The notes beneath the pieces are model-generated. The model saw nothing but the letters and a program-made list of their open reading frames with translations, ran no database searches and was not told the origin of the DNA. A stretch of 37,489 nt of DNA from Candidatus Harrisonbacteria bacterium. Its GTDB lineage: Bacteria > Patescibacteriota > Minisyncoccia > UBA6257 > UBA11618. The stretch covers positions 1 to 37,489 of the forward strand of contig VGJO01000003.1 in the NCBI GenBank assembly GCA_016867415.1, written 5' to 3'. The translations under genes and the position numbers were made by a program. Below are positions 28,138-37,489 of this stretch, in pieces; position 1 is the stretch's first letter; every line of letters starts with the position of its first letter.

Positions 28138-28206
28138 AATTGGCGGTGAAATTATATCCTTTGTACGAACCTTTTTCGAGCGGAAAATGAACTGACCCGC
28201 CCCGCC
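28138..28206 (+). repeat. Site A: putative left junction with a recombinase-tail-like sequence
   Basis: AATTGGCGGTG identical to 37360..37370, then GTACGAACCTTTTTCGAG..TGA (VRTFFERKMN*) and CCCGCCCCGCC as after site B; spacing is 1 nt longer than in B/C/D. Confidence 0.6.
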
Positions 28207-28306
28207 ACTGCCTTGCTTCGCTCGGCAACACCAAAGAAAAATGTCTCTTGCTTTTTTGGATTTGCGCGCGACCAATTTTTTCTTCTAAAAGGATGATAAC
28301 ATTTTT

Positions 28307-28496
28307 GCGGTCGTTTTTGATTGATGTTCGAACTTTCTTTGAGCAGAACCCCGACTAAGGAAACCGCCCCGCCGCCGCTCAAAAGCAGGCGGGCAAAAAT
28401 TCCTTCCCCCCAACCCCCTTCCTTTTTGCCCGCCTGCTTGGGCTTCGCCCTGAAATTTTTTTGGCGAACAGATTTATCGGCGGGATTGGAGCGCGT
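28307..28496 (+). repeat. Left 190-bp inverted repeat (site B, tail coding sequence, 17-bp-stem hairpin)
   Basis: Reverse complement of 35432..35621 with 2 mismatches by manual comparison; 28305..28358 reads LRSFLIDVRTFFEQNPD*. Confidence 0.95.
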
Positions 28497-28503
28497 GCCA
28501 ATA

Positions 28504-28818
28504 TCATTGGCGCGCCTCCTTCGGCGACTTAAAAAATAAAACTGATACTACTAAATCTACAATAGACCAAAAGAAATGTCCAAAGTAGAGAGGGTTGATC
28601 GGATTAAAAACGATTGCGATAACGATCATGGTCAGCATCCATCTCTTATTTTTCTCTTTGTGATATAGATACACTGAGAATGCGGCCGCCCCAAAGATCA
28701 CAAGCTTAAGAGCTTGATAGAAAAAGTAAGGCCATACCGGGATTACTGCGACAAGTAATGCTATGGTCGCTATCTTCGAAAAAAGTTTTCGATATTCAGC
28801 TTGTTCTTTGGTAACCAT
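28504..28818 (-). CDS. DUF6804-like small multi-TM membrane protein
   Basis: PYFFYQALKLVI...IAIVFNPINPLYF..FWSIVD motif pattern; 104 aa. Confidence 0.75.
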   Translation of the reverse strand: MVTKEQAEYRKLFSKIATIALLVAVIPVWPYFFYQALKLVIFGAAAFSVYLYHKEKNKRWMLTMIVIAIVFNPINPLYFGHFFWSIVDLVVSVLFFKSPKEARQ

Positions 28819-28826
28819 AAGTATTT

Positions 28827-29906
28827 CTACGACCTCTCCAAATTTGTAAACTTATCATAATAGGCAAGCTCTTCTTTTGAGATCGATGGTTGAAATTTAC
28901 TCATAGCTTCCAAAAGCAACCTTTCGTCAATAAAACTTTTGTCTTGCGCGACAGCTAGACGAGCGGCCTGTGTGACAATAAGCTCGATGTCCGAACCAAC
29001 GTAGAACTCTGTTTTTTTTGACAATTTGTCGAAGTCAATTCCCTTGTCATAAGGTCGTCCGGATAGGAAAATCCTAAACATATCCTTTCTTGCCTCAAAG
29101 TCTGGCGGTCCAACAAAAATTCGTTTATCCATTCTGCCGGATCTCATAATGGCCGCATCGATCATGTGGGGTCTATTTGTTGCTCCAACGACCAAAATCT
29201 TATTTGCCCCAGCATTGTTGAGCTGAAGCAAAAACTCGTTGATCTCTTCTTTTTTAATATCAGCTGAGGAAGTTAGCTCTTCTCTCTTTGGTATAAGACC
29301 CTCGATTTCATCAATAAAAACAATAGCCGGAGATTGCATCTTCGCCATCTCAAATACTTTCGCAATATTACCTACTGCACCGTGAACCCACGGCGTGGCA
29401 ACCGATGAAGGGTTGAGCTCAAAGAAATTGTATCCCAGTTCTTCAGCCAATTTTTTGACAATAAAAGTTTTTCCACATCCCGGAGGACCATAAAGTAATA
29501 TGCCATTGGGGATAGAGAGTTTAAATTTTAAGAACTTCTCCGGATTTTTTAGGGGCTCTATGACTTCACTAATCAAAAGGGCTTTGAGTCCCTGCATGCC
29601 TGCAACACAATCAAAACCACGCAATGTGGTGAGACTATCGATAATATCGGTTATCTTCTCATGTGAGTGGACATTTATGACCACACCAAGATATTTTTTA
29701 TTCTCATGATCAATCGTCACAAGATCATATCTTTTACCTCGATCAATAACTTCCTCTGGTCGAATATTGGTGAATAGATATAAATATTTTCCGTCAGAAA
29801 GCTCGTAAACTTCTGTGAAAAAGATACGTTCTACGCGACCTTTAATTGTGAGGTCATCCCTCACCTTGAATCCGTTATGTAAAATTGGTTTAGTTGATGT
29901 TGTCAT
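28827..29906 (-). CDS. Classical-clade AAA+ ATPase (single Cdc48/FtsH-like module)
   Basis: Walker A GPPGCGKT, Walker B IVFIDE, SRH ATNRPHMIDAAIMRSGRMD; ~95-aa unknown N-domain. Confidence 0.93.
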   Translation of the reverse strand: MTTSTKPILHNGFKVRDDLTIKGRVERIFFTEVYELSDGKYLYLFTNIRPEEVIDRGKRYDLVTIDHENKKYLGVVINVHSHEKITDIIDSLTTLRGFDCVAGMQGLKALLISEVIEPLKNPEKFLKFKLSIPNGILLYGPPGCGKTFIVKKLAEELGYNFFELNPSSVATPWVHGAVGNIAKVFEMAKMQSPAIVFIDEIEGLIPKREELTSSADIKKEEINEFLLQLNNAGANKILVVGATNRPHMIDAAIMRSGRMDKRIFVGPPDFEARKDMFRIFLSGRPYDKGIDFDKLSKKTEFYVGSDIELIVTQAARLAVAQDKSFIDERLLLEAMSKFQPSISKEELAYYDKFTNLERS

Positions 29907-29935
29907 AAATTTTTCTTATCGTCTTTCATAAAAAA

Positions 29936-30508
29936 TTATTGTGGAGTGCAGTTGGCATCTAGGAAATTGTTATAGGTATCAATCTGACTGTCGAAGGCCT
30001 TTCTTCTTTGATCCCAACTGTTTGCGACAGTAATAAGTCTTTGGCGTTCAGTATTATAGCGATCTACCCTAGAGTTGTAATTGTCTACTGCATACTCATT
30101 ATTTTCATCGACATACATTGCCTCAATGGCGACCTTTTCAGCCTTATTTGCGGCAATTTGTCGATCCAAGGTATCACTCTCGGTAGCCAACTGGGCTTCC
30201 GTAGATGCATTCGGTTTTAACTGCATTGCTCTGTTGTAATTAGAATCAGAGCATCGAAATGTTTGACCGCCTTCTGACAAGAGGTTATTGGAATTTGTAC
30301 CGCCAGAAGATGTGTTGGTTGAGGTTGAGGAGCCGCTATCAGACCAAATTATCCATCCAAAAAAGAGAATCACGCTAGCAATGATCAGAATTTTTTTCCA
30401 ATTATATTTACTTTTTTCTGATAGAGGTTTCTCACGATTAATTGTACCCGTTTTTTGAGGGGTATCCTTATCTAAAAAATCTGTATCAAATTTAAGATGG
30501 TCTGACAT
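29936..30508 (-). CDS. Single-TM protein with extracytoplasmic coiled coil and Cys pair
   Basis: TM ILIIASVILFFGWIIW, Ser/Thr linker, heptad-like region bounded by FRC...ANC. Confidence 0.8.
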   Translation of the reverse strand: MSDHLKFDTDFLDKDTPQKTGTINREKPLSEKSKYNWKKILIIASVILFFGWIIWSDSGSSTSTNTSSGGTNSNNLLSEGGQTFRCSDSNYNRAMQLKPNASTEAQLATESDTLDRQIAANKAEKVAIEAMYVDENNEYAVDNYNSRVDRYNTERQRLITVANSWDQRRKAFDSQIDTYNNFLDANCTPQ

Positions 30509-30514
30509 ATAATT

Positions 30515-31984
30515 TTATCCACTAAATACTGCGCTCAAAATCCAGATGCCTATAATCCCGATAATGGCGTACTGCCAGTACTTCTGCCACTTATGCAGTT
30601 CCAGTTTGCCTAAAAATGAATAACTCCCATTGCCATGATTTTCTACGGTGTAACGTGCAATTGGAATAACTGGTACAAAGAGTAGGACAAAATAGAGAGT
30701 ATCGCCGTAAATCCTAGTTCCACATCCATTAAGAGTGAACATACTAGGCGCACTTGAGATTGGTTTGCCATGTTTAGCTGTTCTCTCTTCTAGCTTCTGT
30801 TTTAGTTCTTGTAGAATCTTTTTCAATTCCAAATCAGTATCGCTGTTATAAATTGCTTGGTTGATTTCTTCTATAGCCCTGTCCGATTTACCCGCCTTTA
30901 CTTTCTGTAAGATTGGGTCAAGAACTTTGTTGTATGCTTCCTCTTTTGTTTTATATGCAAGATTGCTCTGTAGGGTCGCAACATCTGCTTGGACTTTATT
31001 TTTAGAACTCTCTGTGCCAGAAATTTCCTCTGCGATCTTAGCTAGTCCCAGTGCAACCTCGGTTTCATTTAGATCATTGTGTAGATCAATACTAAGACTC
31101 CTTATCGCAGTTGCGGCCCTATCTCGCATTACCTTTGTTTTACTGTCGTTATATAATCCAAGATCGATTAATTTATTTAATTCAGATCGAATTAATCCTA
31201 TGAGTTCTTTTATGGTTTTCTTCTCTTCCTTATCAAGGGTTCCATCCTCGCTGACCTTCAACTTTTCCAATTTTTCAACCGCAATACTAATCGCTTGATA
31301 AGCCGGTCCCAAAACACTTTTCTCAACTTTTTGACCTTTGGCCGAAAAGACCTTCTGAAATTCGTTAATATAATCGCTGTGTTTATGGAGATGATACAGT
31401 TCAGTATAAATGTCAGTCAGGTATTCAACTACATGGCCTTTGAAATCAGAAACAATATCTTCACTGGCTATTTGCTCATCGTGGAGTTTGTATACTTTAG
31501 AGAAAGATGCCCAGAATTTATCTGAATCGACCAACTCTTTCCAGGCGATCAGAGAATTTTGTAGATATTCTTTGTTGTCTTCGACAGCAAGCGTAAGACA
31601 ATACAAAATTGCTAAATTCTTTTTATAAAAGAAAGCTTTTGTGCTTTGACCTTCAGCCGCCTTTTGCCAAACACGAATGGCATCGAGATAGTTCTTTTGC
31701 TTGAGTAGTCCTAAAGCCTGTTCATCAATGCTGTCTGCGATCTGAATCCAAAAGAAATACTCCTTGATCTTCTTCTTTGGAGCTTGAAGTCGTTGCAGGG
31801 CCTCCTTGACTGCGTCCTCAGTTCGAAAATCTTTGAACAGACCGACATCTAAATCATAGCTTGGAACATCATCTACTCTTAAGCGATTAATAATTTCCTT
31901 TGAACGTTTGAGGATATCCTTTTCGCTGGCCGAAATATCCAGTCCCAGAATGTGATATGCGTTGTTTTTGAGTGTATGTGACAT
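30515..31984 (-). CDS. J-domain-like (HPD-less) helical-repeat protein with C-terminal membrane anchor
   Basis: NAYHILGLDISASEKDILKR matches J helices I-II and EALQRLQAPKKK resembles the helix III-IV junction; no HPD; TPR-like helices; C-terminal NGCGTRIYG..YFVLLFVPVIPIARY plus TM helix. Confidence 0.7.
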   Translation of the reverse strand: MSHTLKNNAYHILGLDISASEKDILKRSKEIINRLRVDDVPSYDLDVGLFKDFRTEDAVKEALQRLQAPKKKIKEYFFWIQIADSIDEQALGLLKQKNYLDAIRVWQKAAEGQSTKAFFYKKNLAILYCLTLAVEDNKEYLQNSLIAWKELVDSDKFWASFSKVYKLHDEQIASEDIVSDFKGHVVEYLTDIYTELYHLHKHSDYINEFQKVFSAKGQKVEKSVLGPAYQAISIAVEKLEKLKVSEDGTLDKEEKKTIKELIGLIRSELNKLIDLGLYNDSKTKVMRDRAATAIRSLSIDLHNDLNETEVALGLAKIAEEISGTESSKNKVQADVATLQSNLAYKTKEEAYNKVLDPILQKVKAGKSDRAIEEINQAIYNSDTDLELKKILQELKQKLEERTAKHGKPISSAPSMFTLNGCGTRIYGDTLYFVLLFVPVIPIARYTVENHGNGSYSFLGKLELHKWQKYWQYAIIGIIGIWILSAVFSG

Positions 31985-31988
31985 ATAT

Positions 31989-34502
31989 TTATCGCGTTAT
32001 ACCCGAAAGGTTATCTTTAATTTTCTCTTGATCATCGGATGGGAGCAAGAGTGACAAATTGCGGACACACCGTTTCAGTTCGTCCACATCGCCAAGTTCA
32101 ATTGCTTTTCTACCTTTTTCTATGTAATACTTTGCCTCTCTTTTGTTGATAAAGGTTGGATTACTATCAACAATTTTTTTGAAGTGATGTACCCAAGTTA
32201 CTGGGTTAGAAAAAATAGCTTTTGAACTTAACTCTTTTATTTGCTCATTGATACGAATCAGTAGTGATTTATCGTTATTGGCAATAGCTTTCTCTCCTTC
32301 TTCTTTAAGTTTATTTAACTGATCGTTATTTGCGGTTCTGTCCTTCTCGTCCGCATAATCACTAATGATACTTTGTGTGTCTTGGATACCGTCTTTAAAC
32401 TCTTTTACTAACTGGGGCATCTCTTTCTCTTTTTCAATTTTATCCAAGGCAATTTTTAGATCTTTAATCTGTTTATTTGCCTTCATTTTTTCATCTTCGT
32501 CCACAGGAGCATTATTAACACTTGTTTGAGCAGATTGGATGTTATTGTCAATTATTTTTCTTTCGTCGGGCGAGAGGTTTTCTGAAATAGCTTTCGCTCT
32601 TTCTTTTTGAGTCTCAAGATCTTCCTCAATATTTTTAAGCTCAATCGTTTCGTCATGAGAGGTCGAACGAGCATTAACAGTGAGGTCAATCAGTGGGATA
32701 TAAGCCGTAACAAACACTTCTCGTGATTCGTTCACGACAACAGTTAGTTCCAGCGGCGTTCCCTCGGGGAGATCATGCGGCAAATCCTTCCCATTAATAC
32801 CCACCTTACATAGAAACCCATTACGATCTGGCATGTCAGATTCACCCTCAACCACTATAATATCTAACTCATTTTCCTCGCCCCTCTTCAGCTTTCTTGA
32901 TGTTTTGTAATCAGTAAGAAATCTTTTAATGGGGAGCATTGAACCTTTATCAAAAACTCTTTCGCAAATATTTACTGCCACGTTTCTTGTATAATCTTTT
33001 TGCACCACAACAATACCAACAGAATGTGGTAGGGGGGCGCCAGATACCGATAAGCCGTGAGTAATTGTGAATGAATCAGGGTCAATCGGAACAGAATTAC
33101 CTTGTTTGTCAAAGAGATATAACCAATAGACATTTGGTTTATTTGGTTCGACTGCAACCGTATCAAAGAACTTGCCGTTTTTTAGTTTGATTTTTTGACC
33201 ATTATAAAAGCCACTGTCAGATTGAATTTGTATATAATATTCCTCTTCTGATTCTTCCAGACTCTCGATGATCCCGCTGGCTGTTTGTTCCGTATCAGAT
33301 GTAAGGGATTCATAATTTAAATCAATAGATCGAGTTCCTTCCTTGAGTTTTTTGCCATCACTTTCCATAAACTCTTTTGGAATTTTCTGACCGATACCGA
33401 ACACACAAGCGCCTCTCGCAACTACAGTAAGAGGATCAACTGATGCATCAGTGGTGATTTTGAGATCAGCTTCAATCCTTTCTCGAATATAAGGAATCTG
33501 CGTCGGTCCACCGACAAGGATTACTTTTGCAACAGCACCGGCCTTGATACCAGCGTCTTTCAGAGTTTCCTTTGAGAGTTCTATAGTGCGATCAATCATT
33601 GGCTTGATCAATTTCTCAAAGTCTTTTCTTGTAAAATTAACGGTGAGAAAAATCTCCTTGTCATAATCGTCCTTCCCGATATTTTCCACCACGATTGAGG
33701 TTTTATCATATTCAGATAGCTCAATTTTAGCGGTCTCGGCAAAAAACTTTAATTGAGAAAAAGCACTCCTGTATTTTTCATTACTCCTATTAAAGTTTTT
33801 GATAGAAAACTTTTCTAAAATTTTCGGTACAATCACTTTATCAACAATTTCCAAGTCAAAGTTTTTGCCACCGAGAAAATTATCGCCATTATGTCCAAGT
33901 ACCGAAAGTGCTCGATCTTTGGAGGCGATCAATGCAACGTCAAACGTACCACCGCCAAAATCATAAATAAGCCAATTCTCATTCTTGGTATTAGTGAAGC
34001 CGTAAGCGATGGCGGCGGCTATGGGTTCTTGTAGTAACACCACATGTTTAAATCCGGCGAGGTTGCCCGCTCGCTTGGTTGCTTCCGACTGAAGTACCGA
34101 GAAAGCGGCTGGAACAGTGATCACGGCGGCCACCGTGCTGAAGTCTGGATACTTTCTTAAAATATCCTCTTTCAAGCTCTTCAGAATTTCGGCTGAGATT
34201 TCTTCCGGGCCCATGTCCACGTTGGCTCTCTCAAAGTGAAACTTTTCCGAAGTACCCATTAACCGCTTAACTTCAGGTTTGTAGTTCTTAATCTCTTCTT
34301 CCGATGCGTCCTTATAGAAACTTTCGTATGCTTTCTGGCCGACCACTTTATTTCTTGCCTTGTCGAAACCAAAGACGGATGGGGTATATTCTACGCCTCC
34401 CGGTTTCTTAACGATTTCAATATTGCCATTCTTATTAATTGCAACGGATGAATTCGTTGTGCCAAGGTCAATACCTATTTGAATATTTTGTTGGTTGACC
34501 AT
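31989..34502 (-). CDS. Specialised Hsp70 (DnaK-family) protein, 837 aa
   Basis: IGIDLGTTNS, TVPAAF, QEPIAAAIAYG, YDFGGGTFD, LGGKNFD, LVGGPTQIP; ~110-aa insert after the ATPase domain; divergent substrate-binding domain and long helical tail. Confidence 0.95.
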   Translation of the reverse strand: MVNQQNIQIGIDLGTTNSSVAINKNGNIEIVKKPGGVEYTPSVFGFDKARNKVVGQKAYESFYKDASEEEIKNYKPEVKRLMGTSEKFHFERANVDMGPEEISAEILKSLKEDILRKYPDFSTVAAVITVPAAFSVLQSEATKRAGNLAGFKHVVLLQEPIAAAIAYGFTNTKNENWLIYDFGGGTFDVALIASKDRALSVLGHNGDNFLGGKNFDLEIVDKVIVPKILEKFSIKNFNRSNEKYRSAFSQLKFFAETAKIELSEYDKTSIVVENIGKDDYDKEIFLTVNFTRKDFEKLIKPMIDRTIELSKETLKDAGIKAGAVAKVILVGGPTQIPYIRERIEADLKITTDASVDPLTVVARGACVFGIGQKIPKEFMESDGKKLKEGTRSIDLNYESLTSDTEQTASGIIESLEESEEEYYIQIQSDSGFYNGQKIKLKNGKFFDTVAVEPNKPNVYWLYLFDKQGNSVPIDPDSFTITHGLSVSGAPLPHSVGIVVVQKDYTRNVAVNICERVFDKGSMLPIKRFLTDYKTSRKLKRGEENELDIIVVEGESDMPDRNGFLCKVGINGKDLPHDLPEGTPLELTVVVNESREVFVTAYIPLIDLTVNARSTSHDETIELKNIEEDLETQKERAKAISENLSPDERKIIDNNIQSAQTSVNNAPVDEDEKMKANKQIKDLKIALDKIEKEKEMPQLVKEFKDGIQDTQSIISDYADEKDRTANNDQLNKLKEEGEKAIANNDKSLLIRINEQIKELSSKAIFSNPVTWVHHFKKIVDSNPTFINKREAKYYIEKGRKAIELGDVDELKRCVRNLSLLLPSDDQEKIKDNLSGITR

Positions 34503-34511
34503 AGTAATAAA

Positions 34512-35036
34512 TTAATGGTTGCTTAGTAAAATTATCTTCGCCTTGCGAACGACCTGACCTTTAAGCATGATTGTAGGCTCGACAGTTTCCTTCACGATCG
34601 ACTCCGGAAGCGTAGGGTCTTTCTCTACAGATAAGATATCGAGATTAAGCCCGTCATTGTATTTGTGGTTCTTGTAGTCCACAATCTCGATATCGTATTT
34701 TTCTAGGTAACGCCTTAACTTTTGTATAGAATTTTCTAGACCTTTTAACTGATTCTCTGGTAAACTCGAAGCAGATTTGGTGATACGTTGCTCGATACGC
34801 CACACTTCTATAGCAAGATCAGTAATCTCATTGGCCTCAATAGTCACTGTTACAAACTTAGGGGCTACTGCAGATTTAATTTCCTCTCTAATCTTTAAAA
34901 ATAATTCTTCGAACTTATCGGCGCCGCTGGACTGATGAACGCCCTTGCGTGAAAGGAGATACACAAAAGCAAGGATTAAAAGAGCTCCTGCGACGGTGAT
35001 TGCTACGACAACTGGGTTTGTAAATAAATTGCTCAT
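34512..35036 (-). CDS. Membrane-anchored GrpE-like nucleotide exchange factor
   Basis: N-terminal TM, coiled coil, GrpE-type C-terminus LEKYDIEIVD...IVKETVEPTIMLKGQVVRKAKIIL; directly upstream of Hsp70. Confidence 0.72.
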   Translation of the reverse strand: MSNLFTNPVVVAITVAGALLILAFVYLLSRKGVHQSSGADKFEELFLKIREEIKSAVAPKFVTVTIEANEITDLAIEVWRIEQRITKSASSLPENQLKGLENSIQKLRRYLEKYDIEIVDYKNHKYNDGLNLDILSVEKDPTLPESIVKETVEPTIMLKGQVVRKAKIILLSNH

Positions 35037-35040
35037 AATT

Positions 35041-35250
35041 TTATTTTATTAAATCATCAAGCGACACTCCGAGCGCATCCGCGATTTTTTTGACTGTTTC
35101 AATAGTGGGATTGGGAGTTGATCCAGCTTCAATTTTGGCGATTGTATGAAAAGCTAAATCCGCCTTTTTTGAAAGCTGATCCTGCGAGATACCGAGTTTG
35201 TTTCGGTATTTTTTTATGTTGTCTGCGATTGTGGATTTTTCCTTTGACAT
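35041..35250 (-). CDS. XRE-family HTH transcriptional regulator
   Basis: NIKKYRNKLGISQDQLSKKADLAFHTIAKIEAGSTPNPTIETVKKIADALGVSLDDL. Confidence 0.95.
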   Translation of the reverse strand: MSKEKSTIADNIKKYRNKLGISQDQLSKKADLAFHTIAKIEAGSTPNPTIETVKKIADALGVSLDDLIK

Positions 35251-35272
35251 ATTCGTATAACTTTACTATGAT
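35244..35272 (+). promoter_or_regulatory. Rightward sigma70 promoter toward the recombinase, overlapping the HTH start codon
   Basis: TTGACA(35244-49)-17 bp-TATGAT(35267-72); inverted repeat TATAACT(35256-62)/AGTTATA(35273-79) straddles the -10. Confidence 0.65.
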
Positions 35273-35309
35273 AGTTATATAGTGTTACGATTACTGCTTA
35301 TCGTTAGTT

Positions 35310-35338
35310 AGTATATGAAATTTTTATTATTTCGTCAA
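35310..35338 (-). promoter_or_regulatory. Leftward sigma70 promoter for the HTH-cargo operon
   Basis: TTGACG(35338-33)-17 bp-TATACT(35315-10). Confidence 0.65.
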
Positions 35339-35431
35339 ACACAATTAGGGAGTTCCTTGTCGTTGCCCGCGCATGGGTTGGGTGGGGCAAGGGCAACATC
35401 AACTCTAGCGGCGCATTTTGCTTTACAAAAT

Positions 35432-35621
35432 ACGCGCTCCAATCCCGCCGATAAATCTGTCCGCCAAAAAAATTTCAGGGCGAAGCCCAAGCAGGCGGGC
35501 AAAAAGGAAGGGGGTTGGGGGGAAGGAATTTTTGCCCGCCTGCTTTTGAGCGGCGGCGGGGCGGTTTCCTTAGTCGGGGTTCTGCTCAAAGAAAGTTCGA
35601 ACATTAATCAAAAACGACCGC
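35432..35621 (-). repeat. Right 190-bp inverted repeat (site C, tail coding sequence, hairpin)
   Basis: Inverted copy of 28307..28496 (188/190). Confidence 0.95.
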
Positions 35622-35750
35622 CAAATTGTACTTTTTGCGAAATCGTAAGATGTTGCCTCGGCGCTTCGCGCCTCGGCATGGTATTTTTCCGCAATTTTGA
35701 AGGCATTTTTGAAATCCAAAAACAAGGTGCGGTCGGCAATGCGGAAGTTC
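35570..35750 (-). repeat. Inverted silent copy of the recombinase C-terminal coding region with an alternative tail
   Basis: 35749->35570 reads NFRIADRTLFLDFKNAFKIAEKYHAEARSAEATSYDFAKSTIWRSFLINVRTFFEQNPD*; the first 44 aa are 37/44 identical to recombinase codons 37237..37368. Confidence 0.92.
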
Positions 35751-35865
35751 CTGTGCGACAGAACAGAGAAAACGAAGTTTTCAAAACCAATCTTTTTTCT
35801 TTCGCCTCTGGCGAAAGGTTGAGCACATTTTTCTTTGATTGCCCAAAAGCTAACTTCAAAACAAT

Positions 35866-37413
35866 ATGGACAACTTAAATTTACAAACCAAAAAGTTTTT
35901 CCTCTATGCTCGCAAATCTACGGACGAGCCAGAGAGGCAGGTTTTAAGTATTGAGGCGCAAATGTTTGAACTGCGAGAATTTGCCAAAAAAGAAGGCTTG
36001 AATATCGTCCGTGAATTTGTGGAAAGCAAAACCGCCAAAGAACCGGGCAGAGAAATTTTTAACGAAATGGTGGCGAGCATAGAGAAAAATGAAGCCGAGG
36101 GAATTTTAGCGTGGCACCCTGACCGCCTTGCGAGAAATAGTATAGACGGCGGACGAATAATTTATTTGATAGATACTGGCAAAATATCCGCGCTAAAATT
36201 CCCGACTTTTTGGTTTGATCCGACACCACAGGGAAAATTTATGTTGTCCATTGCTTTTGGGCAATCAAAATATTATGTGGATAATCTTTCGGAAAACATA
36301 AAGAGGGGTATTCGCCAGAAGCTGCGAAATGGAATATGGCCCGCTTGGGCGCCACTGGGCTATATAAACGACAAAAACGCTCGCTGTATCACTGTTGATA
36401 AAGAAAAAGCAAAATATATCAAGCGGGCCTTTGAAATGTACGCCACTGGCGAATACCCCCTCGCTCAAATCCGAAAGATTATCAATTCCTTGGGCTTGGT
36501 TGGCAAGAAAGGCAAGATGCTTTCGGTCTCAAATTATCAATATATGCTCAAAAATAAAATCTATTACGGAATTATTGAATACAACGGCGAAATGTATGAC
36601 GGAAAGCATGAACCGATTGTCACAAAGAAACTTTTTGATTCCGTTCAAGAAGTGATGATGAATAAATCTAAACCGAAAACGCCAAAATTGAAACCTTATG
36701 TGTATAGAGGATTTTTCCGTTGCGGAGAGTGCGGTTGCTTCATCACGACCGAAACACAAAAGAGTCATAACTATTTGCGATGCACTAAACGGAAAAATCC
36801 TTGCACGCAAAAATATGTCCGTGAAGAAATCATCACTTCTCAAATAAAGGAAGAAATCAAAAAAGTTTCTTTGTCTTCCGCTTGGGCAAATGCTTCAATC
36901 AATTATTTTGAAAACGAGAAAATGAAAATTGCCCAAGCGGAAAGCTCTTTCGCCCAAAAAGCGAGGCGGGAGCTTGTAGAGATAGAAACGAAACTTGATC
37001 GCTTGCTGGATTTGCAACTGGACGGCAATTTGTCGCAAGCGGAATATACCGCCAAAAAGCACAAGCTCATTCTCGCTAAAAAAGATTTTGAAGAAAAAAT
37101 CATCGCTTTTGGGCGAAAAAGTAATAATCGGTTCGAACTTGCCATAAACTTCATAAAAGAAGCCAACCAAGCCGAAAAATGCGCTCAACAAGAAAATCCC
37201 GAAAGGATTCGGGATTTTCTCAAAAAGATTGGTTCGAACTTCCGCATTGCCGACCGCACTTTGGTTTTGGATTTCAAAAATGCCTTCAAAATTGCGGAAA
37301 AATACCATGCCGAGGCGCTTTGCGCCGAGGCTAATTCTTACGATTTCACAAAAAGTGAAAATTGGCGGTGTGCTTTCGAAAAAATTCGAACTGATTTCGC
37401 CCAAAATTTGTAG
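35866..37413 (+). CDS. Large serine recombinase (resolvase + recombinase + zinc-ribbon/coiled-coil domains)
   Basis: YARKS catalytic Ser, SIEAQ, WHPDRLARN, APLGY, GKHEPIV, Zn ribbon CGECG...YLRCTKRKNPC, coiled coil; 515 aa. Confidence 0.97.
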   Translation: MDNLNLQTKKFFLYARKSTDEPERQVLSIEAQMFELREFAKKEGLNIVREFVESKTAKEPGREIFNEMVASIEKNEAEGILAWHPDRLARNSIDGGRIIYLIDTGKISALKFPTFWFDPTPQGKFMLSIAFGQSKYYVDNLSENIKRGIRQKLRNGIWPAWAPLGYINDKNARCITVDKEKAKYIKRAFEMYATGEYPLAQIRKIINSLGLVGKKGKMLSVSNYQYMLKNKIYYGIIEYNGEMYDGKHEPIVTKKLFDSVQEVMMNKSKPKTPKLKPYVYRGFFRCGECGCFITTETQKSHNYLRCTKRKNPCTQKYVREEIITSQIKEEIKKVSLSSAWANASINYFENEKMKIAQAESSFAQKARRELVEIETKLDRLLDLQLDGNLSQAEYTAKKHKLILAKKDFEEKIIAFGRKSNNRFELAINFIKEANQAEKCAQQENPERIRDFLKKIGSNFRIADRTLVLDFKNAFKIAEKYHAEALCAEANSYDFTKSENWRCAFEKIRTDFAQNL

Positions 37414-37414
37414 A

Positions 37415-37451
37415 GCGGGCGGAATTCCCCCCAGACCCTCCTTCCGCCCGC
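37415..37451 (+). repeat. GC-rich hairpin with C-rich loop after site D, homologous to the hairpin in the 190-bp repeats
   Basis: GCGGGCGGAA-TTCCCCCCAGACCCTCC-TTCCGCCCGC vs GCAGGCGGGCAAAAA-TTCCTTCCCCCCAACCCCCTTCC-TTTTTGCCCGCCTGC. Confidence 0.8.
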
Positions 37452-37489
37452 CCGCAGAAGCGACCCTTTCGGATTGAAAAAACTGCCAA

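Follow-up and report, generated by a model that had tools for sequence, protein, structure and literature searches.

We analyzed a 37,489-nucleotide stretch of DNA, hereafter the window, which is the entire contig C3 of a 12-contig, 631-kb genome of a Candidatus Harrisonbacteria bacterium (assembly GCA_016867415.1, contig VGJO01000003.1). Near its right end, on the forward strand, lies the gene for a 515-amino acid (aa) large serine recombinase (LSR), LSR1 (35866–37413), parts of whose 3′ end recur at other sites in the window. A first-pass annotation had described these sites, A to D, as dispersed and exchangeable copies of the recombinase's own C-terminal tail, a shufflon- or integron-like cassette system. 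LSR1 carries Resolvase (PF00239, 8e-20), Recombinase (PF07508, 1.1e-16) and zinc-ribbon (PF13408, 6.1e-08) domains. Across 61 LSR sequences, residues Y14, R16, K17, S18, T19 and D20 are invariant, as are the cysteines C286, C289, C306 and C313. A predicted model contains a coiled coil at residues 338–441, built from long helices at 338–385 and 391–441. With a nucleophilic-serine catalytic domain, a recombinase domain and a zinc ribbon with an inserted coiled coil, LSR1 is a large serine recombinase. A sequence search of the PDB returned just two matches, in the catalytic domain, at 1e-5.

All four sites were found where the first-pass annotation had placed them, with the reading frames and tails that it had quoted. 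Each is centered on a short core, and the arms are named here by their side of it; R1, R2 and, for left arms, L types a–d are labels coined in this analysis. Site B (28305–28496, plus strand) joins a unique left arm, through a GCGG core at 28307–28310, to an R1 arm with native tail codons RSFLIDVRTFFEQNPD, a stop codon and a hairpin with a 17-bp stem (28383–28439). Site C lies on the minus strand between the LSR gene and a block of other genes, the cargo. Its right arm (35432–35622) is a second, inverted R1 copy, 98% identical to that of B, with tail codons RSFLINVRTFFEQNPD, a stop codon and the same hairpin at 35489–35545; its core and left arm (35618–35750) consist of TGGCGG (35623–35618) and L1′, an inverted duplicate of the ~128 nt of LSR gene just before the core. 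The counterpart of L1′, the L1 arm (37236–37362, plus strand), lies inside the LSR coding sequence at residues ~457–500. It runs into site D (37363–37489, plus strand), where the core TGGCGG (37363–37368) is followed by an R2 arm up to the contig end, with tail RCAFEKIRTDFAQNL, a stop codon and a hairpin at ~37415–37451. Site A (28141–28195, plus strand) has a host-side left arm, a GGCGG core at 28142–28146 and a decayed right arm.

Two inverted repeats tie the sites together: one of 198 nt and 98% identity joins the right arms of B and C (28299–28496 and 35432–35629), and one of 157 nt and 86% identity joins the left side of C to the LSR 3′ end (35594–35750 and 37236–37392). In a five-site alignment the left side of C resembles that of D, the right side of C resembles that of B, and the right side of D is identical to the start of contig C7. 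Every homology break falls at GCGG, which bears out the first-pass observation that the B/C and C/D homologies break at the same core. The pattern TGGCGG-N15-RTTCGAAC occurs three times in the 631-kb genome, at D (37363, plus), C (35623, minus) and C7:127 (minus), and relaxing it to GCGG-N15-RTTCGAAC gains only B (28307, plus). The proposal that a hairpin follows each site holds for B and C (each −34.8 kcal/mol, z −3.9) and for D (−23.1 kcal/mol, z −3.4) and fails for A, where no significant hairpin was found (z −0.55). Site A is indeed out of register, through a 1-nt insertion before TACGAAC.

Relatives of LSR1 show what usually follows the core. We confirmed LSR relatives in 533 genomic stretches by tblastn and based the locus analyses on the best 80, which are mostly metagenome-assembled genomes of many lineages of Patescibacteria (the Candidate Phyla Radiation, CPR), at 60–96% identity. 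Matches to the protein mostly stop at residue 501, that is, at the TGG-CGG core. In the 50 of these 80 loci with an L anchor, the core is followed by a tRNA 3′ end in 43 and by an R-type arm in one (L016), and is cut in four. The LSR end is thus of the tRNA type in 43 of 44 readable close relatives, the gene ending at the same TGG-CGG inside the 3′ end of an opposite-strand tRNA-Ser gene. In 13 of 16 related loci scanned, ARAGORN found a complete tRNA-Ser on the other strand that shares 6 nt with the LSR end; in the remaining three, the tRNA-Ser lies elsewhere within a tandem array (L016), cannot be placed against a rearranged LSR end (L048), or is present on each side (L039). Anticodons at LSR ends are gct, tga, gga or cga. 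The two paralogues in the same genome, LSR2 (contig C7, 54% identity) and LSR3 (contig C2, 47%), are followed by tRNA-Ser(gct) and tRNA-Thr(cgt), respectively. The islands thus integrate at tRNA 3′ ends and leave the tRNA gene whole. Since a complete tRNA overlaps the LSR ends, the TGG of the core is the tRNA's CCA end read backwards, and RTTCGAAC is its T-loop.

The spacing of the T-loop motif separates two kinds of right arm. Among 116 sites with an L-type left arm, TTCGAA lies 15 nt after GGCGG in 66, all R arms, and 10 nt after it in 47, all tRNA arms; three have a variant T-loop. For LI integrase, the legend of Fig. 6 in PMC3783163 places the recognition motif of the zinc-ribbon domain 5 bp nearer the center in attB than in attP. 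The 15- versus 10-nt spacing matches this rule, so we assign the tail-bearing arms as P′ half-sites and the tRNA as the B′ half-site; TTCGAA is likely the zinc-ribbon-domain motif. It follows from this assignment that B is an attL, the L|tRNA junction an attR and the L|P′ junction an attP, with L1 as the P arm of the island. The left flanks of B-type sites are mutually unrelated between loci, as expected of host DNA. Sites B and D are both on the plus strand, and the GCGG core is common to the host|R, L|tRNA and L′|R junctions, so hybrid sites in direct orientation share a short core with the target, as in an attP × attB system. The 5-bp shift is met at right half-sites only; the left half-sites, L arm and host flank alike, contain no clear TTCGAA-like motif. 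A second T-loop-like motif, GGTTCGAAC, does occur in the LSR gene at 37222–37240 of the window, 123 nt before the core. It marks the start of the inverted copy L′, has an equivalent place in 56 loci, and the 28 nt around it are nearly invariant at the DNA level across the LSR family.

We therefore consider it likely that the window carries island 1 of a tandem pair at a single tRNA-Ser gene, each island driven by an integrase-type LSR. Island 1 would span the core of B to the core of D. B would be its attL, host flank joined to P′ arm, and the LSR gene would read across the other island end, which in most relatives is an attR made of the P arm and the opposite-strand tRNA-Ser 3′ end. In the window, an LSR2 island would have integrated later beside the tRNA, making D. 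Strand exchange is predicted within GCGG, that is, in the tRNA discriminator and first acceptor bases, and thus within the last ~16 codons of the recombinase, as the first-pass annotation had held, so that recombination would change the enzyme's tail. The annotation's B × D pair likewise reads as an attL × attR pair that would excise a circle. In its excised form the element would encode a native terminal helix, with attP overlapping the last 15–19 codons; integration would put antisense-tRNA codons, or the P′ codons of a neighbor, in place of that helix. The excised circle would bear two identical inverted attP sites, and copy correction may keep the internal replica, site C, identical to its partner arms. 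The mechanism is mainly of a known kind, a serine integrase working through attP, attB, attL and attR at a tRNA gene and building a tandem array, and it would cover sites A, B and D. Under this reading the tails are alike because P′ half-sites imitate the tRNA end. They are better seen as half-sites mimicking the tRNA-Ser acceptor and T-arm than as the shuffled alternative C-termini first proposed.

The tail codons themselves bear the marks of a translated sequence. Over 53 distinct R1 arms, the entropy at the three codon positions is 0.33, 0.31 and 0.80, third positions being 2.4 times more variable than first and second positions. This coding constraint on the last 15–19 codons indicates that they are translated. 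In a model of a natural enzyme with native tail, the tail makes up the latter half of the final helix (residues 494–513; predicted local distance difference test, 57–79). Given a native helix and a constrained tail, integration would swap the enzyme's terminal helix. Both tail types occur in the family: typing the best 120 protein clusters with in-house regular expressions gave at least 17 native tails, 73 with antisense-tRNA codons and 30 that were unclear, being unclassified or truncated. A scan of metagenome contigs for an LSR body joined to an R-type arm recovered 35 stretches. A long open LSR frame ends in an R-type tail in 18 of them, and eight have a full ~504-aa frame with an R1-type tail. 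Four of the joined cases (L095, L100, L115 and L118) are internal members of tandem arrays.

Site D is best approached through contig C7. From the TGGCGG of D to its end, C3 runs for 127 nt that match C7:1–127 exactly in reverse complement. Beyond this shared arm, C7 bears the LSR2 3′ end as an inverted copy, followed by LSR2 itself and by the tRNA-Ser. Five relatives (L016, L093, L096, L106 and L125) have the layout LSR, R2, 1.9–4.3 kb of sequence, inverted R2 and an LSR2-type gene. From the shared arm and these five like layouts we infer a second island next to the tRNA, with LSR1 joined to its neighbor's P′ arm. D would then combine the P arm from island 1 with the P′ arm from an LSR2 island, with adjacency and arrival order read from the relatives. 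D had been taken for a variant of the tail; its arm would instead belong to the neighboring island, in the position that the tRNA occupies in 43 of 44 readable relatives. Site A, listed at first among the exchangeable copies, is best read as a degenerate, attL-type remnant of an older insertion, its right arm P′-like and decayed. A third complete island of the same design lies at C2:81631–84900, at tRNA-Thr(cgt) instead of tRNA-Ser; its inverted arm pair is 150 nt long, its cargo ~1.2 kb and its inverted gene-end copy 98.5% identical, and its recombinase is LSR3.

Site C is the part of the island that goes beyond this scheme. Here L′ is joined to a second P′ arm in inverted orientation, which by its sequence makes C an attP-like (P|P′) site inside the island. 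The arrangement recurs widely. In genome loci, L′ copies bear an R arm in 36 of 40 cases. In 23 of 35 loci, L and L′ of the same locus share at least 99% identity, and in 17 they do not differ at all (100%); the two P′ arms, at B and C, form repeats of 155–413 nt that are 100% identical in 11 of 19 loci; L and L′ of the window are just 92.6% identical. We also examined 27 more distant relatives, a set made up of LSR2, LSR3 and sequences at 60–75% identity, some labelled Elusimicrobia. An inverted gene-end copy is present in 22 of the 27 distant relatives with upstream sequence and is at least 97% identical in 18, and the LSR3 island (47% identity) keeps the full layout at a tRNA-Thr. Between LSR genes of different loci, median synonymous divergence (dS) is 0.32 and the ratio of nonsynonymous to synonymous divergence is 0.125; the recombinase is under purifying selection. 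Because the copies are nearly identical despite this dS, some process must keep them alike and selection must keep the arrangement. The B- and C-type copies, in line with the first-pass annotation, are not one-off remnants but recur in homologous loci.

The L arm varies in a patterned way. Its last ~35 nt before the core exist in about four sharply distinct versions, encoding TKSENW, AECKTW, SKCDSW and AKSTIW, and the L and L′ versions usually agree within one locus. L and L′ are less than 95% identical in the window and in L022, L025, L028, L033, L034, L039 and L041, which suggests module exchange between islands. A small protein encoded at C was judged unlikely: the gene copy has no ATG in 23 of 23 loci (a TTG occurs at codon −55 in 11 of them), and the unique part upstream of L′ gives no codon-position signal (0.34, 0.27 and 0.33). 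A promoter scan of 35200–35900 found 2 sites against 1.5 expected, which is no evidence of a promoter there.

One relative was seen to have integrated through the second site. In L094, tRNA-Ser(gga) abuts L′, and the LSR gene, with its native tail, faces away from the tRNA and is convergent with the cargo gene. This is the product that would be expected if a circle with two attP sites integrated through C. We rejected an in-place C × D flip as its origin, since such a flip would leave the cargo in the other orientation. L051 has the same tRNA|L′ junction, its contig stopping before the LSR's own end. The recombinase thus occurs naturally with both types of end and in both orientations to the tRNA, in keeping with the changing tails and the flipped recombinase of the first-pass annotation. 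A different arrangement is found in L039 (9667–11589), where an LSR module is flanked on each side by a complete tRNA-Ser(gga), the two being inverted copies. They belong to a 219-nt inverted repeat (L′ plus the whole tRNA) of 92.7% identity, and there is no cargo block or R arm nearby. We also considered and dropped an insertion sequence-like transposon, with the LSR module moving alone on its ~130-nt terminal repeats, because inverted crossover sites cannot excise and the module is nearly always beside cargo.

The replica may serve as a second integration site, a switch or a regulator. Tentatively, and with considerable doubt, we propose an element with two attP sites whose architecture provides a built-in directionality switch in place of a recombination directionality factor (RDF), making the recombinase gene self-toggling. 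The first attP would span the end of the LSR gene, and the second, C, would end a truncated copy of the gene end. An island integrated through the first site would lose the native helix of its enzyme and be locked, which is the common state. With integration through the second site, or after a later inversion over the perfect ~130-nt repeats, the native enzyme would be kept or restored and the island would stay mobile, a rarer state exemplified by L094. If so, chance would decide at each integration, as in a coin toss, whether the defense island is fixed or mobile.

We looked for switching at the window's own sites in Logan contigs (k = 31), which drop rare variants, from four sequencing runs (X1–X4) out of 24. 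No L1|R1, L1′|R2 or B-left|tRNA junction was found in these contigs, which break at repeats and make this a weak test; the alternative junctions predicted by the first-pass annotation were likewise absent from them. Of the loose ends before 37363, those in X1, X3 and X4 carry the C7 context, and X2 has a single different left context. A single joint (28438 to 35490, in X3) falls inside the repeated hairpin and is uninformative. The mean word depth of the cargo contig is 59–80% of that of the left-flank contig, a contig mean that is no measure of cells.

Several points weigh against a tandem pair of integrase-driven islands as a full account of the locus. The piece between C3 and C7 is missing: the block between the C3 end and the C7 start has no match in any contig of the bin, so adjacency comes from relatives. 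The four runs' contigs contain no attP, attB or inverted junction of the window's sites, which is weak evidence either way. No empty site turned up in 16 other family genomes, where the flanking PGA_cap gene has no match. The motif-poor left half-sites make the sites far more asymmetric than textbook att sites. With no conserved RDF candidate, the licensing of excision is not accounted for, nor is the purpose of C, and the L039 arrangement fits none of the models.

The shufflon-like alternative, in which any pair of sites A to D recombines by inversion or excision to give regulated variation of tails and cassettes, appears improbable to us. It would make sense of the alternating orientation of neighboring sites (B plus, C minus, D plus and E on C7 minus) and of the fact that every arm combination exists somewhere (L|tRNA, L|R, L′|R, L′|tRNA and x|R). 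The two LSR orientations relative to the tRNA (L094 and L051), cargo on the other strand in one of 19 loci (L057) and the lack of a conserved RDF would also suit it. Yet the half-site geometry is that of directional attP and attB sites, and one state dominates, in 43 of 44 LSR ends and 18 of 19 cargo orientations. The likeness of the tails is accounted for by tRNA mimicry, the tail-like arm of D is found only in tandem arrays, and the cargo orientation of L094 fits integration through a second attP better than a C × D flip in place. The absence of alternative junctions from the four runs' contigs points the same way, if weakly. The term shufflon is also a poor fit because no structural gene has alternative ends; only the recombinase's own end is affected, and its states are strongly biased. 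Nor does the system share a defining part with integrons, having a serine enzyme and one cargo block per island between inverted P′ arms.

It is very improbable that C and the remaining extra copies have no function, being left over from decayed sister islands or from a frozen ancestral accident, and that their identity reflects only recent origin. Site A clearly is a relic of this kind, and what lies upstream of L′ in C resembles a piece of LSR 3′ end that is older, diverged and interrupted by an insertion; the lower L/L′ identity of the window would fit decay. However, C keeps the same boundaries in relatives down to 47–60% protein identity and at another tRNA target, and in most loci the L/L′ and R/R pairs are 97–100% identical against an LSR median dS of 0.32, where a neutral relic would diverge or be deleted.

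An assembly artefact, through mis-joined strains or palindrome collapse in the assembly graph, can hardly be maintained: the contig does end exactly k = 127 nt after the core, and one perfectly palindromic relative (L097, a 7311-nt metagenome contig with the same LSR gene inverted at both ends) is probably an artefact of inverted repeats, but the order B, cargo, C, LSR, D recurs in dozens of independent assemblies from various groups and assemblers, some on contigs of 0.4–0.8 Mb, unique sequence bridges every junction inside the window, and the Logan contigs of the four runs cover its unique parts without differences. C5 end and C9 start, and C6 end and C11 start, are also exact reverse-complement pairs, the match extending through hairpin-like, GC-rich elements similar to what follows site A. 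Such exact reverse-complement ends mean that long inverted repeats break this assembly in several places. At both the C1 end and the C8 start the sequence enters a long array of tandem 9-nt repeats (GGGCAACAC-like), some of which are variant in C8.

The cargo of island 1 comprises seven open reading frames (ORFs), all on the minus strand, between 28504 and 35250. In order along the window they encode a DUF6804 protein (28504–28818), an IetA-like AAA+ ATPase (28827–29906), a 190-aa and a 489-aa protein (both between the IetA-like and Hsp70-like genes), an 837-aa Hsp70-like ATPase (31989–34502), a GrpE-like protein (34512–35036) and an XRE/control-protein-like helix-turn-helix (HTH) protein (35041–35250). 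By eye, the N-terminus of the 489-aa protein is J-domain-like. PADLOC recognized only the HTH and AAA+ parts of the cargo and gave no match for LSR1 or for the Hsp70-like, GrpE-like, 489-aa, 190-aa and DUF6804 proteins. The Hsp70-like, GrpE-like and IetA-like block is, by its position, a candidate new defense system.

Elsewhere in the family, islands of 3.5–9 kb carry cargo blocks of 1.6–7.3 kb that are mostly unrelated between loci. We scanned for Pfam families the 30 longer of 68 cargo ORFs in 18 loci and obtained a family for 19 of the 30 proteins; 11 are restriction-modification types (type II, IIG/I-like, III, Dam and GmrSD). The remaining cargo includes AAA_13/AAA_21 Abi-like ATPases, RadC, DUF6119, a HisRS-like pair and a radical SAM protein. 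The slot is thus filled mostly by defense genes of restriction-modification or Abi-like type in other islands, from which the cargo of the window differs. Two loci, L046 and L047, have single-ORF cargos. In 18 of 19 loci, with L057 the exception, cargo and LSR are on opposite strands. No protein family common to the cargos of 19 islands was found, although RDFs are small and diverse and could be missed.

The LSR family comprises at least 7964 protein clusters. It is patchy among close genomes, with a distant relative (29% identity) in only one of 16 family genomes, and the 2.9 million contigs of IMG/VR hold a single LSR relative, at 57% identity. The open-access papers and preprints searched contain no description of the family. 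Apparently new against that literature are the family and its spread through the CPR, an attP laid over the integrase's terminal helix and, above all, the maintained inverted attP replica. CPR genomes are tiny and have few described mobile elements, and LSR islands appear to be a major vehicle among them. One swappable block of defense genes per island at tRNA-Ser offers a simple handle for finding new CPR defense systems. For recombinase biology and engineering, an integrase that probably recognizes a tRNA T-loop, would lose its terminal helix on integration and has a maintained, inverted spare attP with no conserved RDF combines three features that together make a testable case of possible directionality control by DNA architecture alone.

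Among known systems, the closest are the large serine integrases of phages and of integrative and conjugative elements (LI/A118, phiC31 and Bxb1), which have the same catalytic, recombinase and zinc-ribbon plus coiled-coil domains, and likewise a short common core and hybrid attL and attR at the element ends. LI integrase also shows the same 5-bp outward shift of the motif in P-type relative to B-type half-sites (PMC3783163). Unlike these elements, the islands described here target tRNA-Ser 3′ ends (four isoacceptors) and place attP over the integrase's last codons. Their left half-sites are barely conserved, they have no conserved RDF gene, and they contain an internal inverted attP replica. 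In size, and in having a single relative in IMG/VR, they are also unlike phages.

In the systems of the small serine invertases Gin, Cin, Hin and Min and in the R64 shufflon with Rci, it is a tail-fiber or pilin gene that varies; their recombinase is located outside the switch, and their populations are visibly mixed. As in those systems, crossover sites here lie in coding sequence, would exchange 3′ ends by inversion, and are several and alternating in orientation; unlike in those systems, only the recombinase itself is affected and its states are strongly biased. In the yeast 2-micron plasmid, FLP acts on two FRT sites that are contained in long inverted repeats. The predicted excised circle would similarly consist of a recombinase arc and a cargo arc split by two identical inverted sites, with the recombinase's own site embedded in a 0.3–0.5 kb inverted repeat that is kept identical. 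In contrast to 2-micron, the enzyme here is a serine recombinase, the element is integrative and has no replication genes that we could see, and no evidence of flipping or amplification was obtained.

SSV1-type archaeal integrases are split by integration into tRNA genes, and mycobacteriophages show integration-dependent immunity. As in both, the predicted crossover lies in coding sequence of the element, so integrated and free forms would encode different proteins. SSV1 uses a tyrosine integrase and the mycobacteriophage case concerns a repressor gene, whereas here a serine integrase would lose only its terminal helix, and the islands keep an intact copy of the gene end elsewhere. Finally, in SCCmec (staphylococcal cassette chromosome mec), Ccr large serine recombinases acting at the rlmH 3′ end build tandem composite islands with repeated att sequences. 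The present islands differ in having an opposite-strand tRNA target, a repeat that overlaps the recombinase's own end rather than the target gene's, a single recombinase gene at the island edge, and long inverted repeats that flank the islands on the inside. They share with SCCmec an LSR-driven insertion at the 3′ end of a conserved gene, with later arrivals stacking into arrays of att repeats, and stacking of this kind would account for sites A, B and D.

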